DNA from: a plasmid
DNA: 64,000 bases
Strand: one strand, 5' to 3'
Sequence record: NZ_CP135254.1
A program made the position numbers. Below, piece by piece: positions 18,001 to 24,000 of this stretch (positions within the stretch are counted from its first letter, which is position 1; each line of letters opens with the position of its first letter).

Positions 18001-21000
18001 AGCGCATTCCCGGCCTCAACTGGGACCCGAAGCATCGCCTGAGCAGCCTCAAACAGGTGGAGGAGGCGCTTGATGAACTGATTGCCAGCCACGGGGAGTG
18101 CTGCCCGCTGCCGCTGCCGGTGGATGTCCAGGCTGAACTGTTCCCGGAGGTGCTGCACACCCGGACTGAACGCCGGTTGCAGCGCAGAAACATCGCGTTC
18201 ACCCGCAGGATGCGCCGGGAAGAACGGACGCTGGCGCATCACTGGCGGCTGCGGCAGAACCTGCTGGGGCAGGCCGTCACGGAGCTGAACTTTCAGTCCC
18301 CGGAGACGGTCAGCAGCTGGTACCGCCGGTGGGCCGAAGAGTTTGACGCGCGCGAGCTGGAGCCGGCTTTCTGGCACTGGCGGTCGCGGTTTACCTCGCT
18401 GGCGTCCCTGGACTGGCTGCGTGACGCGAAGGAACCGCTGTACGGTGTCATTCATGAAATCGGCTTCATTGTGCGTGACACCCCGGAGGCTGTGCGTCAG
18501 GCAGAGCGCTGGCAGGTGCCGAACAAGCTCACAGACCGGAGGCGGGGATGAGGTGGCGTTACTCCCTGCGCTGGAAATTACCATCACCGTGTCCCGGTCC
18601 GCATGAACTGGCATCCGAAGTGGTGGAGGCCGGACAGCCTGCGCCCGAATCCATTATGTCGCTCTGGGTGGCGGGCGCCGGGTATGCGGTGTGCGTGGAT
18701 TTTCCCGATGAGCGGCAGATTAAGCGCTGGAGCGATGAGCGCAAAGCCGCTGCGCGTCGAAGGAATCTTGAGCGGCGGGTCAACAAAATAGCGCCTCTGT
18801 TTGCTGATGAGCTGATAGATCGGGAGCTTGAGAGGCGACCAGACTATTTCCGGGGAAAATCTCAGACCTGAATCTGGTTAAGCACGGTTGAGGCGTGCAT
18901 CGATGTGGAGCCTGCGACATCTGACAGACAAAGTGCACAAAGTCGGATAGAGAGAGGAGCGCTGACGCGCCCCTCTTTTTCCTGGCACTTCATTATCGCC
19001 CTCAAATCCTTTGCCTCTCTGATATTGCTTTCTGACAGCGTGAGTATCGCTGTTTCTTTCTGGCAGGCCTGACCAGGGGACACCTTCGGCTCCCGACCGC
19101 TACGCGTCCGGTCGTCGAGCCACACTCCGCTAACCGCGAAATGACGCGGTAAGCTCCGCCGAACCCGCTCGCGGTTTCGGGCCTGCCGGCTAGTGTCTGA
19201 TGTCTGACGTCAACGGCAGGCTTGCAGCATCCTTGTCAGGATGCGCCGCCCTTTTACGCGCCGTGACCTGCGCTCCCTGCATCCCGGCAAAAAAAACGCC
19301 GGGACGTAAGGCGCAACGCCGTTTCGCTCGTCGCGCCCCGTCGTTGCCGGGGTGCCTGCCCTGGTGCTCCGTGCGCCTTTCACCGTTTAAGCCCCTTCGC
19401 CCGGGAATATCCCGCCACAAACCGCCTGGCTGTCCAGTACCGCTGATGCTCTCCGGCGACATTTTTTGCCGAAAACCCGACAAATAATGTCGCCTCCGTA
19501 CCGGACATCTGCACCGGCCCGTGTCTGTTCTTTCCCGTTGCGGCGAAGGTTCTCAAACGGGTGAGGTTCACAACCCGGAAACAACCGGCAGCCACCCCAC
19601 GAAACGTCAACACCGCGACGAATGAAACTCAACGGGTGATGTTCTTTAAAAATCAGGAGGAAAAAAATGCAGACACAGGCGATGCGTGTTTATCAGATCA
19701 CATTTACCGGACGCGATGCAAAAGGCGTTATTCCGATGTTTACCCGCGTGAAAGCCATGACCGGAAAGGGCGCGATTAAGGCGTTTATTGAGCGTTACAA
19801 ACCTGTTCAGGGCTGGTTTCTGGGCGATCCCGAAGACATTACCGACAACGTGCAAAAGGAGGCAGAAGAAGCAGAGAGCAAAACGCAGAGATGAAAAAAG
19901 CCGGGTAAACCCGGCTTGTTCCACGCCGCAGAAATCGCAGCAACGATTTTTTGCGGCTTCATTAACTACCAAAGGAAGTTAACTCAATGATCCTTTCTAT
20001 TGTTTCACCGTCTGACGGCGCTGTAAAGCCCCGCCGTCATTCCCGCATCCCCCGCGTCGATATTCCCGCACCGGAAATTGACCCCACGCTCAGGGCATTC
20101 GGGCGGCATATCGCAAAAAGCATACGCAAGGGGCGTGGTGTTCACATCCCCGCGATGAAAAACGCCGATTTTGGTCAGGTGCTCCGCACCCTCGAACTGA
20201 CACGCGCATTTAACTAACCAGGTGAGCCGCTCCGAAAGGGGCGGCAACAGCAGAAGGAGGACATCATGAATCACACCACCACACAGGCTGTCAGCGTCGA
20301 CATTACCCCCCATAGCGGCGCGGGAGAGGTCATCCCGTCTTTGCCCGTCGAGCGCATTGTGGCGCAGCGTAACAGTGGCGTGGCGGCTTTTCTGGAAGCC
20401 ATAAGGCTGCTACGTGACGCGCAGAAACTCATTTTTGAAGCATCCGGGCGCGGGTGGATCTCAGGCATGACCGAAATCATCGAACGCAGCCTGTCAGCCG
20501 ACTGCAGCACCACGCGGGAAGCCGCCTTAAAACGCAGTATCTGCCGTTATGCCGATCGCGACATCTGGACGCGCCTGATGAATGACACGGGCATGTTTAC
20601 GCTGATGAGCGAGGCGCAGCGCAAGGAGTGGGACACGCAGCTCTACAGCGACGACTGCCCCGAAATCACACTCGACAACGTGATCGCCACGTTCCGGGCG
20701 CTTAACGCCAGCAAGGGAGAAACGTTTGAGCAGGGCGTGATTGACGTGTTCCGCAACCTCTCATGGGACTATAAAACGCATAACCCGTGCTTTCTGGGAA
20801 AAAAAATTATCATTGATGGTGTCCTGGATAATCATCGCGGGCTGTATTTTTCCGTGCGCACGTATGCACAGAACCGCATCGATGACCTTGCCCGCCCGTT
20901 CTGGATCCTCGACGGAAAGACCATACCCGACAATCGCGTCTCCGAGGGGGCAAACCTGAGCGCGTTTATCAGTCAGGGCGGTGCGAAGAGCGTGGGGGAG

Positions 21001-24000
21001 GTGTTTACGTGCGAGTATTTCACAGTACGCACATACAAAAAAGGCTCCGCGCACGTCACCTTTACCCGGCCCGACCTGGTGGAGAAGGTGAACGACATTA
21101 TCGCGCGGCACTATCCGGGGGCGCTGCCGCCGGTGGTCTGATGCACTGGCGGGGGACTCGTTCCCCCGTCACTGTCTGACCGCCCGCCGAAAACCTGCCT
21201 GCGGCGCGTGGCAGGGCTGCGCTGACGCGCCGCCACGGCCACTCTGTCACAGATTTGGTATCTCTGTTTCGGGCTGACTCTGGCTGTTCTGCTGATATCT
21301 TCCCCTGTTCCATTCTCTCTTCTGCTGTTTCTTTCTGACAGGCCAGACCCGGGGACACCTTCGGCTCCCGACCGCTGCGCGTCCGGTCGTCGAGCCACAC
21401 TCCGCTAACCGCGAAAGGACGCGGTAAGCTCCGCCGAACCCGCCAGGCGGTTTCGGGCCTGCCGGCTAGTGTCTGATGTCTGACGTCAACGGCAGGCTTG
21501 CAGCATCCGTTCCGGATGCGCCGCCCCTTTTACGCGCCGTCACCTGCGCTTTTCGCACCCCGGCAAACTGACGCCGGGCTGTAAGGGGCAACGCCGTTTT
21601 CGCTGCCGCTTCTCCGACGTTGCGGCGGGTTCCTGCTCTTTCCTTACCTGGTGCCGTTTCACCCCTTTGAGTCCTTTCGCCGGGGCTGAGACAAGCACAA
21701 CCCGTCTTGCCGTCCATGCACTGCTGGCGCACGGCCATAAAAACTTTTTGCCTGAATCCGCAAAAACTTTTCACGTCCGGCATGGACGGCTTCACCGGGC
21801 CGTGCTCGTTTACGCCCTTGCGGCGAACGGCTCTCAAACGGGTGAAGGTAACAACCAGCGGAGCAGAGCAGCAGGTCCCCGCAAAACGTCAAAACCGCGG
21901 CCCCGGCAACTCAACGGGTGACGGTTTTAAAACCTCAAAGTCAGAAAAAGGAAAACACTCATGAATACCCGCATCGTTCATTCCATATCGTCCGTTCTGC
22001 GTACTGATGGCTTTGTGCGCAACATCCACGCCGCTAACCCGTTCGATGTTATCCGCGCCGATGTGGTGCTGGCACGCATCGAGAAAGAGGCGGGGCGCTG
22101 CTGCGGGATGCATTACGAGCTGTATCAGGCGCGCGTGCTGGGCGATGCGCTGGATTATCTGGGCGCGCTGCCGCTGAAAGACCGCCCGGCATTCATGGGT
22201 GCGGCGGCAAAACGTGGGTATCTGCTGACGTTAGCCGAAGAAGAGTGTGCGCAGGAAGCCCGCGATGTGCTGCTGAGTGAACTGGCGGCAAACGAGTAGA
22301 CAACCCCGGATGGCGGCATGTAGCTGCCATCCCTTAACCCGAAGGAGAAAACCATGCACTTACATCTCACCGAATCCTCAGCCCGTCCGGGAATGCAGGT
22401 CACAGCAGAAGCCGAGCGCGAATACTGGCTGAGTCGCCAGAAAGCAGCGGTGAAAGCGCCCGCTGAAATCGATGTTCACGCCTTCCATGATGCGCTGGGT
22501 CTGATGTACCCGCTCAACTGGTCAACGAGTGAGAGCGGTGGCTGGGAGACGTTCATGCTGCAGGAAATGGTCTGTGGTGACGTGACAGAGATTTATGCCC
22601 GCTACGGAGCCAGATATTTCCGGCTGCGGGATGTGTGCAACCTGAGCCATGCGCAGATTAAAACGCGCATTAAGGAGGAATTTAACCTGTTCCGGAAATG
22701 AAAAAAGCAGGGAAAACCCTGCTTTATCCACGCCGTAAAAGTCGCGGGAACGATTTTTTCGGCTTCACATACACGATATATGGAGGTCTGTATGACCCTG
22801 ACTATTCTTTCACCTTCCACTGAGGCTGTAAAGCCCCGCCGTCACCAGCGCATTCTGCGCGATGACATCGCCGCGCGGGAGATTGACCCGGCGCTGAAAG
22901 CCTTCGGACGGCATATTGCCCGGAGCATTCGCAAGGGGCGCGGCGTCCATATCCCGGCGATGAACAACACCGCCTTCGGGCAGGTGCTCCGCACGCTTGA
23001 ACTCAAACGCGCATGTAACTGATAAGGTGAGCCGCTCCTTCGGGAGCGGCAACAGCGGAGGTAATTGTATGTCGCAGCTGAGTTTTGCCGATGTGTTCAA
23101 CATGGCCAGAGAAACCGCTGAGAATAGCCCTGTGATCCAGGTCAGGGCGCAGGTCGCGGAAGTGGTGCCTTCTGTTCAGCGTTTGATGAGTGAGCAGCAC
23201 AGCCGGAGCCGGTTTATCCACGTGTTTAAAGACACGGGTCGCCATCTGGGACGCTGGGAGGTGTTCAGTGATTTTCTGTCACTGGCCGCCAGTGAACTGG
23301 ATATGGCCCGGATAAGAGCGCCGGAAAGCATTGAGCACTGCCGGAAAATCTGCGCGCGTTATGAGGCGTCAGATATCGCGAAGATGCAGGAGATGTTCTG
23401 CATGATGGTGTGCGCACTGGAGGCTAAATTTCATGATTTCCTCGGCGCCATTTTCATGGTGCTTGAGCTGGGCGATAACTTTCGCGGGCAGTATTTTACC
23501 CCATATCCGGTCCAGTCCCTCATGGCCCGGATGCTGATGCCGGGCGTCAGGGACACTATCCGCCGGGAAGGGATAGCCACGGTCAGCGACCCGGCCTGTG
23601 GTGCCGCCGGGATGCTGATTGCGTATGCGGAGTGCCTGCTTGAGGCAGATATCAATCCTTCCATGCACATGTTCGGCAGCTGCATCGATATCGATCCGGT
23701 GGCGGCGGATATGGCATTCATCCAGCTGTATGTGCTGGGAATAGCCGCCGAAGTGGTGACGGGGAACACGCTGACGATGCAGATCCGGCGGGTAAGATAC
23801 ACCCCCGTGTATTATCTCAATGAGTTCGAAAAACGTCTGGCAGACCAGAACCGATACCGGGCTATGCTGGAGTTTATGCGCGGAATACCGGAGGCTGCGT
23901 AAATAACCGGAAGGGCAGGGGATAACCTGCCCGACTGCGGAAAAAAGGCCGCGCACCTGCGGTGCAGACTAATACCGGCTGCGCTACGCGCCGCCCGTAT

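Follow-up and report, generated by a model that had tools for sequence, protein, structure and literature searches.

Two copies of a portable YdaB cassette with an AS-pc01-like antisense RNA precede unrelated cargo genes on an F-like conjugative plasmid

The analysis of a 64,000-nt stretch of plasmid NZ_CP135254.1 (hereafter, the window) revealed two copies of a portable cassette of ~367 nt, the YdaB cassette, placed before unrelated cargo genes. Each copy comprises a gene for a 76-aa basic protein on the sense strand, an AS-pc01-type RNA of ~98 nt on the opposite strand and a very stable 3' hairpin (Table 1). This arrangement suggests, with a probability of roughly 0.55, a small-ORF cassette that is gated by its own antisense RNA and whose expression would be confined to the single-stranded phase of plasmid entry.

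A sequence-only reading of this DNA had described two paralogous, diversifying two-gene modules of 1.2 kb. A 76-aa ORF followed by a larger ORF does occur twice, with a gap of 46-48 nt in both copies, but the duplicated DNA covers only ~367 nt (19888-20254 versus 22695-23059, 76-83% identity), the similarity ending abruptly at 20255-20260. This repeat is far beyond chance, and it is limited to the small-gene cassette. The large partners, taken for diverged copies of each other, belong instead to different Pfam families, DUF4942 and N6_Mtase, and their sole similarity is a 31-residue BLASTP segment with E = 0.006 in a single pairwise comparison. At least 5000 plasmid records contain the cassette. 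The cargo genes seen behind it are of at least four unrelated kinds: SSB, DUF4942, the half methylase, and DUF3560 together with a mini-methylase. The small proteins are not grouped by cargo; the cassette is a portable 5' unit that has been shuffled among cargos.

Table 1. Coordinates of the features of the two cassette copies and their surroundings in the window.
Feature	Position	Strand	Description
Frpo/ssi-type homologue 1	19215..19650	-	~72% identical over ~430 nt to F Frpo1 and Frpo2; heads p75, small ORF 1 and DUF4942
p75	19667..19894	+	75-aa ORF, first gene after Frpo homologue 1; stop codon inside the conserved cassette start
Antisense RNA, copy 1	19895..19992	-	AS-pc01-like; Rfam RF02875 positions 1-99, E = 6e-13
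Terminator hairpin, copy 1	19898-19917	-	SL3 of the antisense RNA
Hairpin 2, copy 1	19925-19957	+	antisense counterpart: SL2
Small ORF 1	19987..20217	+	76 aa, pI 11.6; YdaB/YdfB/YgdA family, homologues named YdaB
Promoter-like site, antisense copy 1	19999..20027	-	TTTACA, 17-nt spacer, TG-extended -10 AACAAT; consensus scan
Hairpin 3 (intercistronic), copy 1	20226..20245	+	8 G+C-rich pairs, GAAA tetraloop
Cargo 1	20266..21141	+	291-aa DUF4942 protein (YdiA/YgfB family)
Frpo/ssi-type homologue 2	21495..21932	-	repeat families D2-D4, D6; ~72% identical to F Frpo1/Frpo2
p112	21961-22299	+	112-aa ORF, from the ORF list
p115	22354-22701	+	115-aa ORF, from the ORF list
Antisense RNA, copy 2	22702..22797	-	AS-pc01-like; Rfam RF02875 positions 1-99, E = 2e-9
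Terminator hairpin, copy 2	22704-22725	-	
Hairpin 2, copy 2	22732-22763	+	antisense counterpart: SL2
Small ORF 2	22792..23022	+	76 aa
Promoter-like site, antisense copy 2	22804..22832	-	TTTACA, 17-nt spacer, TG-extended AAGAAT; consensus scan
Hairpin 3 (intercistronic), copy 2	23032..23051	+	UUCG loop; U-A pair versus U-G in copy 1
Cargo 2	23069..23902	+	277-aa HsdM-like half methylase
nic-like oriT sequence	25692..25708	-	between the SLT gene and traM

The small ORF encodes a real protein under protein-level selection. Indeed, (i) its conservation by codon position is 0.90/0.92/0.72, (ii) dN/dS between the two copies is 0.13, with a dS of ~1.1 and saturated synonymous sites, and (iii) homologues down to ~30% identity retain the same core, which at 30-40% identity stays conserved while indels are confined to the N-terminal tail. 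The two proteins, earlier put at ~60% identity, are 76% identical, and the homologous start of the second lies at 22792 rather than at the ATG at 22780 implied by the module start first proposed. The AF2 model of copy 1 (pLDDT 84) consists of a disordered basic tail and a helix-loop-helix. The protein is hydrophilic and devoid of a membrane helix, and no known fold or function was found for it; as a weak guess, it may be a generic nucleic-acid-binding helper.

The stretch preceding each small ORF, previously described as an upstream terminator and a conserved leader, corresponds to the gene of a catalogued antisense RNA, Rfam AS-pc01, the full-length matches of the two copies scoring just below (76.7 bits) and well below (61 bits) the RF02875 gathering score of 79. 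The conserved leader (83% identical across 65 nt) and the shared G+C-rich hairpin were correctly recognised. In both copies, however, the T-run of the hairpin is on the minus strand, and the hairpin therefore terminates the antisense transcript and not the upstream plus-strand gene. In copy 1, the RNA includes a 5' stem-loop SL1 carrying an anti-Shine-Dalgarno loop, SL2, which is the antisense of hairpin 2, and SL3, the terminator hairpin, followed by a U-run; copy 2 has the corresponding SL2 and terminator hairpin. The predicted RNA covers the start codon, the Shine-Dalgarno sequence and the 5' hairpin of the small gene. RF02875 also matches pEG356, a pHK01-like plasmid, at the corresponding position (109.6 bits). 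Seven further cassette loci were scanned; six score 58-99 bits, irrespective of cargo, and the seventh, a diverged Providencia cassette, gives no match.

A candidate antisense promoter, matching the consensus at only 9 of 12 positions, was identified in each copy, its predicted -10 element stopping 7 nt short of the 5' end of the Rfam match. pEG356 has a -35/TG-10 site at the same distance, and so does the Providencia cassette, with a protein of only 38% identity. In both copies the site falls within the first 14 codons of the small ORF (codons 5-14 in copy 1), and the invariance of synonymous positions in codons 5-8 and 12-15 can be ascribed to this overlap.

Furthermore, three hairpins of the cassette show compensatory changes, with 97% of cells paired and 12 pairs changed on both sides; none of 500 shuffles reached values as high as those observed, and RNAalifold independently recovered the same three hairpins. 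Pairing of hairpin 3 is complete (100%) across 24 cassettes, in which U-G and U-A variants occur. On the plus strand, hairpin 2 has 23 G-U cells versus 6 A-C cells, which means that the mRNA forms it better than the antisense RNA does; its loops have diverged between the two copies on the plasmid.

By its sequence, which is 100% identical to MOBF/MPF_F plasmids of Klebsiella and Raoultella, the window belongs to an F-like conjugative Klebsiella plasmid, and both cassette copies are located in its leading region, as had been proposed; gene order, plasmid matches and a nic-like site agree on this. The local order is ssb, a parB-like gene, psiB, psiA, the cassettes, an ardB-like gene, the SLT gene and traM. 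The nic-like site is a single match to the nic region of F, with 3 mismatches (0.15 expected by chance). It marks the minus strand as the transferred one and puts the cassettes at 1.8-5.8 kb within the leading region, their genes being oriented for transcription off the transferred strand. In the data of Samuel et al. 2024 (PMC11541004, Supplementary Table 1), plasmid leading regions are statistically enriched for both YdaB/YdfB/YgdA and DUF4942, and no uncharacterised leading-region family is larger than the first of these. Every part of the cassette is already catalogued, and its protein family is very abundant.

Each cassette belongs to an operon headed by a Frpo/ssi-type homologue. The first of these, one of three such repeats in the window, folds as minus-strand DNA into a hairpin of ~310 nt (z = -6.3), and the second precedes p112, p115, small ORF 2 and the half methylase. 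No Pfam, NCBIfam or PHROG match was found for p75, which precedes the cassette in many further plasmids, and no significant family match for p112 or p115, the NCBIfam hit of p112 being at chance level (E = 0.08, 12 bits versus a cutoff of 200); the p112-p115 order recurs in two loci (L005 and L006). A consensus scan gave no plus-strand sigma-70-like site between Frpo and cargo. The upstream elements and the transferred-strand orientation resemble those of the Frpo/ssi operons of F and ColIb-P9, for which no antisense shut-off is described in the literature examined (PMC9849209; PMC12672017), but neither the YdaB cassette nor DUF4942 nor the half methylase is present in F. Frpo-dependent leading-region proteins are made transiently and are absent from vegetative donors (PMC9849209).

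The cassette could operate as follows. Upon entry of the transferred minus strand into the recipient, the Frpo hairpin would recruit RNA polymerase, and the sense mRNA would be made and translated; during this single-stranded phase the antisense RNA would not be produced, because neither the plus-strand template nor the duplex promoter would yet be present. With the synthesis of the complementary strand, Frpo would be lost and the antisense promoter would become active, and AS-pc01 would pair with the translation-initiation region of the small ORF, which would be switched off, perhaps together with the cargo. The outcome would be an expression burst limited to plasmid entry. We infer the silencing, any role of the proteins and the timing, which is a matter of logic and not of observation. 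Since the cargo genes carry their own strong Shine-Dalgarno sequences 46-55 nt past the small ORF, silencing of the latter need not silence the cargo.

Regarding the cargos, the 277-aa protein had been described as methylase-like but devoid of NPPY/F, and this holds: its Pfam N6_Mtase match covers profile positions 25-118 of 311, and the family alignment, which takes in phage members, lacks the motif. The protein comprises a helical N-terminal domain, motifs X (GQYFTP), I (DPACGAAG), II (DID) and III (GNTL) and a conserved T-P, and then ends, with no motif IV, later strands, target-recognition domain or C-terminal half. Against solved HsdM and M.BseCI chains, the family profile can be aligned no further than motif III. 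Members of the family (234-285 aa) are found in phages and in 2269 plasmid records. M.EcoGIX of pESBL is cited as an orphan leading-region DNA methyltransferase (in PMC11541004 and PMC12672017); the cargos resemble such genes as methylase-related, putatively early-expressed leading-region genes, and the 277-aa protein retains gamma-class N6-adenine SAM-binding motifs, but it lacks motif IV and what follows, and DUF4942 has no methylase domain. A homologous DUF4942 domain is fused to a C-terminal MTS-type methylase with NPP(F/Y) in Marinomonas phage P12026 gp32 (519 aa) and Pseudomonas phage phiPSA1 gp22 (543 aa), whereas the plasmid protein consists of DUF4942 only, and the 64-kb window encodes no methylase of this type. 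The cargos may be, as a weak guess, non-catalytic accessories to, or decoys in, DNA methylation or restriction; judged by location only, an anti-defence role for them is plausible.

The sequence-only reading went further, taking each small protein and its large partner for a counter-defence factor of two components, which would for instance inhibit restriction-modification or another immune system or serve as a decoy for it, the modules diversifying as paralogues. The leading-region position and orientation, the enrichment of both families there and the ArdA, ArdB/KlcA-like, PsiB and PsiA neighbours are in line with this, as are the SAM-binding motifs without a catalytic motif, which an HsdM decoy might show, and a Pseudomonas homologue adjoining a Lar restriction-alleviation gene. 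It is nevertheless doubtful: the two large proteins come from unrelated families; the small protein is also found before SSB and DUF3560 and shows no co-evolution with its cargo; the half methylase occurs without a YdaB-like gene in Acinetobacter, Pseudomonas and phages; and none of the three proteins matches known anti-restriction or defence families. It is very unlikely that a split DNA methyltransferase, protecting the incoming plasmid by methylation, is made up of DUF4942 and the 277-aa protein, the small protein perhaps included. The phage fusions, the co-occurrence of both modules in this plasmid lineage, the frequency of orphan methylases in leading regions and the end of the 277-aa protein shortly after motif III, close to the division point of permuted or split methylases, would suit such an enzyme. 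However, the phage-fused domain is of the YdcA/MTS type with NPPF; it shares 29% identity with the mini-methylase of 188 aa found on plasmids and is not related to the 277-aa protein. Moreover, the structure modelled for DUF4942 is not that of a Rossmann half, and its weak fold matches include no methylase; neither protein has a conserved NPPY-like motif; and each occurs without the other (DUF4942 in L017, L019 and L051-L054, the half methylase in L004, L043 and L044).

Two further explanations concern the small ORF itself. A type I toxin-antitoxin system (post-segregational killing) like hok/sok or RalR/RalA, with the cargo as a passenger, is quite unlikely: a cis-antisense RNA of ~100 nt over the translation-initiation region, hairpins at the 5' and 3' ends of the ORF, a strongly basic protein like nucleic-acid-directed type I toxins, and hok/sok-type loci that are common in leading regions (with a sok match in the same region of pEG356) would fit, but the protein is hydrophilic without a membrane helix, the ORF is always inside an operon directly before a cargo with conserved spacing, and the plasmid carries two copies with diverged hairpin-2 loops. 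It is highly improbable that the ORF is only a leader peptide whose translation matters, as for tap of R1, and whose product does not. Its place directly upstream of the cargo and under putative antisense control, like tap and mok, and the lack of any recognised fold or function recall such leaders, but the low dN/dS despite saturated synonymous sites, the conserved core and the confident structure prediction argue for a selected product.

Antisense control through a small upstream ORF is established for CopA/tap/repA of R1, Sok/mok/hok and FinP/traJ. Like these systems, the putatively antisense-gated cassette lies on a conjugative plasmid, has a small ORF directly ahead of the gene of interest and combines it with a predicted constitutive stem-loop antisense RNA of ~90-100 nt that would pair with the site of translation initiation in this ORF. 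Unlike them, its small ORF encodes a conserved, selected protein, the Shine-Dalgarno sequence of the cargo lies downstream behind a stable hairpin so that any coupling is putative, and the sense transcript would come from a single-strand promoter. A close counterpart is AS-pc01 itself ('Antisense to pHK01_035') of the IncFII plasmid pHK01, likewise a three-stem-loop RNA, encoded on the other strand across the 5' end of a 76-aa ORF of the ydaB type; a single paper in the literature searched names it and reports only its detection, and no function was found for it there. The window differs from pHK01 in having two copies, and what follows them is not DUF3560 but DUF4942 and the half methylase. 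CopA and FinP are also present elsewhere in the window.

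The two small 76-aa ORFs, the two larger ORFs, the two upstream hairpins and the conserved leader, which had been interpreted from the sequence alone as duplicated two-gene counter-defence modules (19898-23902), are all present in this part of the plasmid. However, the repeated DNA covers only ~367 nt per copy, and the similarity between the copies breaks off sharply a few bases 5' of each large gene. The two small proteins are 76% identical, not ~60% as first proposed (the homologous start of the copy 2 ORF is the ATG at 22792). The larger proteins, previously regarded as diverged partners, are instead unrelated: one belongs to Pfam DUF4942 (180.7 bits) and the other matches positions 25-118 only of the N6_Mtase profile, while a BLASTP alignment of the two yields one short segment only (E = 0.006, for a single pairwise comparison). 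Furthermore, the supposed upstream terminator carries its T-run on the minus strand and has an A-run 5' of the hairpin on the plus strand, so that a function as terminator of the upstream plus-strand gene was rejected; "terminator plus leader" corresponds to an AS-pc01-type antisense RNA gene, with full-length matches to Rfam RF02875 on the minus strand. The duplicated unit, hereafter the cassette, thus consists of the small ORF, an AS-pc01-like RNA on the opposite strand and a hairpin (hairpin 3) located before the downstream gene, or cargo.

Conjugative MOBF/MPF_F plasmids from Klebsiella and Raoultella carry the 4.5-kb region at 100% identity, and at least 5000 plasmid records match some part of it. 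Along the plus strand of the annotated twin NZ_CP102106, the genes are arranged as ardB-like, ardA, ssb, DUF905, parB-like, psiB, psiA, a hypothetical gene, a first group (75 aa, 76 aa, DUF4942), a second group (112 aa, 115 aa, 76 aa, "N-6 DNA methylase"), an antirestriction gene, an SLT transglycosylase gene (minus strand) and traM. A nic-like oriT sequence, with three mismatches to the nic region of F, lies on the minus strand, which is thus the predicted transferred strand. The cassettes and their cargos sit 1.8-5.8 kb into the leading region, in an orientation that allows transcription of all of these genes from the incoming single strand. A group II intron domain (Rfam RF02005) is also predicted upstream of the leading region.

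The small protein is a member of YdaB/YdfB/YgdA, with homologues sharing 71-97% identity over 100% coverage, some of which are named YdaB. This is family 1 (4739 members) in Supplementary Table 1 of PMC11541004, the largest leading-region-enriched family, listed as "Uncharacterized". A scan of 1.8 billion representative proteins retrieved only 83 relatives, all but one of them short stand-alone proteins, the exception being a 740-aa repeat protein that matches through its helix-turn-helix repeats only; a search of the genome collection with alignment A2 yielded only 16 loci. The core common to the relatives is RHIAR...VRIPAM...GQLLR.LEL.RA. The protein has a pI of 11.6, and its AlphaFold2 model (26-sequence alignment, pLDDT 84) has residues 1-27 as a disordered arginine-rich tail, followed by two helices (33-47 and 59-75) that are joined by a loop with GRGVHIPAM. 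No relative was found in the PDB by Foldseek or profile search. An HU-like DNA-binding protein (Pfam HU-CCDC81_euk_1) was considered and rejected: the copies score 19.9 and 23.4 bits against a threshold of 26.1, just 3 of the 26 family members match the HU profile, the model is devoid of beta arms and the PDB search returned no HU match. As a low-confidence guess, the protein may be a generic nucleic-acid binder.

On the opposite strand, an Rfam scan identified matches to AS-pc01 ("Antisense to pHK01_035") over the full length of the model (positions 1-99) in both copies. Their scores lie below the gathering score of 79 bits, and on sequence grounds the two RNAs can be regarded as AS-pc01 homologues outside formal RF02875 membership. 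Their position is that of AS-pc01: the predicted RNA lies opposite the leader and first codons of a ydaB-type ORF, and is provided with a promoter-like site and a terminator on its own strand. In pEG356, a pHK01-like plasmid used for comparison in place of pHK01, AS-pc01 (109.6 bits) occupies the identical position, over the first codons of a 76-aa ydaB-type ORF. Six of the seven other cassette loci scanned match it too (58-99 bits), irrespective of cargo, the seventh being a diverged Providencia cassette without a match. The model has three stem-loops: (i) SL1, whose loop holds CUCC, an anti-Shine-Dalgarno sequence, (ii) SL2, the antisense of the leader hairpin (hairpin 2), and (iii) SL3, a terminator followed by a U-run. 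A putative sigma-70-like antisense promoter (TTTACA, 17-nt spacer, TG-extended AACAAT or AAGAAT) is located on the minus strand within codons 5-14 of each small ORF and stops exactly 7 nt before the 5' end of the RNA in both copies. pEG356 shows the same arrangement, as does the Providencia cassette, in which the identity of the small protein is down to 38%. Across 24 cassettes no variation is seen at the third position of codons 5-8 and 12-15, which the embedded putative promoter explains.

The RNA structure was analysed in an alignment of 24 distinct cassettes. In the three defined hairpins, 97% of cells pair and 12 pairs vary on both sides; 500 shuffles all fall short of the observed values, the signal collapses when partners are slid by 1-3 columns, and RNAalifold on its own finds the identical three hairpins. 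The loop of hairpin 2 is highly variable (CAGCAA versus CGGGAA in the window copies, and different again among other cassettes). On the plus strand, this hairpin contains 23 G-U cells versus 6 A-C cells, and the mRNA therefore forms it better than the antisense RNA does. All three hairpins are kept at equal places in the Providencia cassette, with different sequences. In that locus (L045, 3462-3490), a TTTT comes after hairpin 3, which lies between the small ORF and the half methylase and has the appearance of an intrinsic terminator or attenuator; the Klebsiella copies of hairpin 3 have no T-run. RNAalifold also pairs TCACCT, in codons 7-8, with AGGTGA, just past the small-ORF stop (alignment A5, columns 154-160 with 372-378); most of these pairs are invariant, with zero compensatory changes, and AGGTGA is also Shine-Dalgarno-like.

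Coordinates in the window of the two cassette copies and of neighbouring or related features
Feature	Position	Strand	Remark
Repeated DNA, copy 1	19888-20254
Repeated DNA, copy 2	22695-23059
Small ORF, copy 1	19987-20217		followed by cargo 1 (291-aa DUF4942 protein)
Small ORF, copy 2	22792-23022		followed by cargo 2 (277-aa half methylase)
AS-pc01-like RNA, copy 1	19992-19895	minus	76.7 bits, E = 6e-13
AS-pc01-like RNA, copy 2	22797-22702	minus	61 bits, E = 2e-9
Hairpin 2	19925-19957 and 22732-22763		nine covarying pairs
Hairpin 3	20226-20245 and 23032-23051		eight G+C-rich pairs, GNRA or UUCG loop, 100% paired
TCACCT	20005-20010
AGGTGA	20220-20225
Frpo-like repeats	~14012-14396, 19171-19650 and 21447-21932		the repeat at 14012-14396 (third homologue) upstream of ssb (14426-14980)
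Frpo-like fragment	24242-24271		30 nt, upstream of a 180-aa ArdB/KlcA-like gene (24551-25093)
Segments just upstream of two Frpo homologues	19049-19232 and 21324-21508		96-100% identical
nic-like oriT sequence	25692-25708	minus	GTAGTGTGT|GGTGATTT, between SLT gene and traM
Group II intron domain	7056-7281	minus	RF02005, 186.6 bits
FinP	26605-26681	minus	above Rfam gathering score
AS-traG	46700-46785	minus	above Rfam gathering score
CopA	63826-63913	minus	above Rfam gathering score

Three long repeats in the window share 70-72% identity over ~430 nt with both Frpo1 and Frpo2 of F, single-strand promoters that work on the transferred strand. As minus-strand DNA, the second repeat folds into a ~310-nt hairpin (z = -6.3). 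Given this homology and the long hairpin that the transferred strand can form ahead of leading-region genes, the repeats are putative promoters of the Frpo/ssi class 1. A scan of the window revealed no sigma-70-like site on the plus strand between the Frpo-like elements and the cargo genes. In F, synthesis of leading proteins occurs as an Frpo-driven burst that precedes strand conversion, and vegetative donors contain no detectable amounts of these proteins (PMC9849209). The cassette and the two cargo genes are absent from F itself. The segments just upstream of two of the Frpo homologues are nearly identical to each other (see table) and the Frpo bodies that follow share 60-67% identity, a joint that looks like recent recombination or gene conversion.

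In other plasmids, the cassette, with the same hairpins and antisense RNA, stands 5' of differing genes. The commonest cargo is a DUF3560 protein (~450-460 aa), followed by a mini-methylase, which is the classical ydaB-ydbA pair; further cargos include DUF4942, the half methylase (Providencia included) and an SSB (Edwardsiella). Co-evolution of small protein and cargo was rejected, since the small proteins are not grouped by cargo in the identity matrix: each window copy resembles most of the DUF3560-associated copies (with identities of up to 83-87%) more closely than it does its counterpart in the window (76%). This makes the cassette a generic 5' unit rather than half of a co-evolving pair. 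An N-terminal domain common to the cargos, on which the small protein could dock, was also sought by all-against-all BLASTP, which gave nothing. Four cassette contigs (L011, L012, L013 and L014) are attributed to Oscillibacter, Oscillospiraceae, Streptomyces and Ferruginibacter genomes; they encode a small protein 78-79% identical, with the same conserved leader and a DUF3560 gene, and are probably due to contamination or mis-binning.

Cargo 1 is a member of Pfam PF13708 (DUF4942; 180.7 bits against a threshold of 25, profile positions 5-189 of 190). In Samuel et al. (PMC11541004), its counterparts are families 24 and 76 (YdiA/YgfB). Stand-alone DUF4942 proteins of 282-295 aa are widespread in Enterobacterales. 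DUF3560 and DUF4942 may be alternative partners of one mini-methylase, and DUF4942 may, as a low-confidence guess, be a DNA-targeting accessory. In E. coli and Salmonella F-like plasmids (loci L024, 6283-8278, and L046, 651-2622), the cassette precedes DUF3560 and a minimal methylase of 187-188 aa, which has NPPF and no recognition domain.

Cargo 2 matches Pfam N6_Mtase with 40.2 bits (threshold 20.4) and carries the SAM-binding motifs X (GQ[YF]FTP, here GQYFTP), I ([DE]PxxG, here DPACGAAG), II (DID) and III (GNTL), which are kept across plasmid and phage members. The absence of an NPPY/F motif, noticed in the sequence-only reading, was confirmed: catalytic motif IV, (D/N/S)PP(Y/F/W), is lacking, the equivalent position reading TPVY, TPQL, MPFL or TPIY, with only T and P kept. 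An intact catalytic motif, which would have refuted the initial suggestion, is thus absent. All profile matches of the family end at or before motif III, and its own profile aligns to the StySJI, EcoR124II and BseCI methylases (solved HsdM/BseCI structures) only up to that motif. The protein ends ~30 residues past the motif IV position, without the second catalytic half and the target-recognition/HsdS-binding region. Homologues measure 229-342 aa (mostly 276-277 aa), down to 65% identity, and the family occurs in 2269 plasmid records, Acinetobacter and Pseudomonas plasmids included, as well as in Vibrio, Faecalibacterium and gut phages. Members measure 234-285 aa across the lineages examined. 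In every locus inspected the gene stands alone (234-297 aa); a fused form, hinted at by phrog_23459 (649 aa), was rejected, the inspected phage loci all encoding stand-alone proteins of 241-297 aa. By sequence, cargo 2 is thus a conserved SAM-binding module devoid of the catalytic loop, later strands and recognition domain. Such a module without catalytic residues is a reasonable decoy candidate, and, as a low-confidence guess, the protein may serve as a SAM-binding decoy or as a dominant-negative HsdM-like subunit. Outside Enterobacteriaceae its neighbours vary (loci L043, L044 and L022), with ParA/ParB in Acinetobacter, a Lar restriction-alleviation gene and a cytosine methylase in Pseudomonas, and an FtsK-gamma-like and a ParB-like protein in a Faecalibacterium phage.

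Taken with a probability of roughly 0.55, the anatomy, conservation and covariation of these elements point to an Frpo-driven burst of expression on entry that would be shut off by AS-pc01 after strand conversion. The minus strand would enter the recipient, the Frpo hairpins would fire, and a polycistronic sense RNA would be made and translated. During this single-strand stage AS-pc01 would not yet be present, we infer: transcription from its promoter requires duplex DNA, and the strand serving as its template would still be unsynthesised. Synthesis of the complementary strand would then abolish Frpo and allow transcription of AS-pc01, which would base-pair with the small ORF around its Shine-Dalgarno sequence and start, silencing that ORF and probably destabilising the message. 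Silencing of the cargo as well would hinge on translational coupling; each cargo has its own Shine-Dalgarno sequence 3' of hairpin 3. A more specific version is rather unlikely: the cassette would be a general and portable gate on the entry burst of plasmid establishment genes, switched on by ssDNA promoters and off by an antisense RNA made from dsDNA only, with the 76-aa protein as an RNA-binding part of the switch and not an anti-defence effector. By analogy, this protein, which has an arginine-rich tail and a helical hairpin, might target the kissing complex of sense and antisense RNA, in the manner of Rom or FinO, or alternatively the downstream conserved GNRA hairpin, as lambda N does with boxB.

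Other explanations were weighed against the entry burst with antisense shut-off. A two-protein counter-defence module, as initially suggested, would suit genes of the leading region, and location is indeed the one ground for an anti-defence label on the DUF4942 protein and the half methylase. The three proteins matched no known anti-restriction or anti-defence family (ArdA, ArdB/KlcA, ArdC, Ocr, DarB and others) in Pfam, NCBIfam, PHROGs and PADLOC, the last of which gave only generic type I and II methylase models for the half methylase; together with the exchange of cargos, this leaves the module a doubtful explanation. In a split methylase, the cargos would be parts of one enzyme. Phage DUF4942 forms the N-terminal part of 519-543-aa methylases whose C-terminal domain carries NPP(F/Y) and is 29% identical to the 188-aa mini-methylase found 3' of DUF3560 in E. 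coli and Salmonella plasmids; no such NPP(F/Y)-type methylase is encoded within the 64-kb window, and we hold this explanation to be very unlikely indeed.

The remaining two alternatives concern the small ORF. The antisense arrangement of a type I toxin-antitoxin pair is present, and the small protein is hydrophilic and basic, toxins of this type being usually hydrophobic; such a pair is considered very unlikely. A pure leader peptide would fit the position of the ORF 5' of changing genes. Codon-position conservation is 0.90/0.92/0.72 and dN/dS between the window copies is 0.13, as expected for a real, selected protein, and the leader-peptide explanation is most improbable. The corresponding dS of ~1.1 indicates that the duplication is old.

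All of the parts are already catalogued (Rfam RF02875, Pfam DUF4942 and N6_Mtase, Frpo, and families 1, 24 and 76 of Samuel et al. 2024). In the literature covered, which was incomplete, no paper was found that ties the YdaB family to AS-pc01 and Frpo operons or notes the changing cargo. The present analysis joins three separately catalogued things, namely the small protein, AS-pc01 and the Frpo operons, into a concrete, testable model in which leading-region genes would be confined to the first minutes after transfer. YdaB/YdfB/YgdA is found in at least 5000 sequenced enterobacterial plasmids, many with antibiotic resistance, and this most abundant leading-region family is thereby given a testable regulatory model. 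Besides the cassette, FinP, AS-traG and CopA antisense RNAs are predicted in the window, antisense control being used repeatedly by this plasmid.
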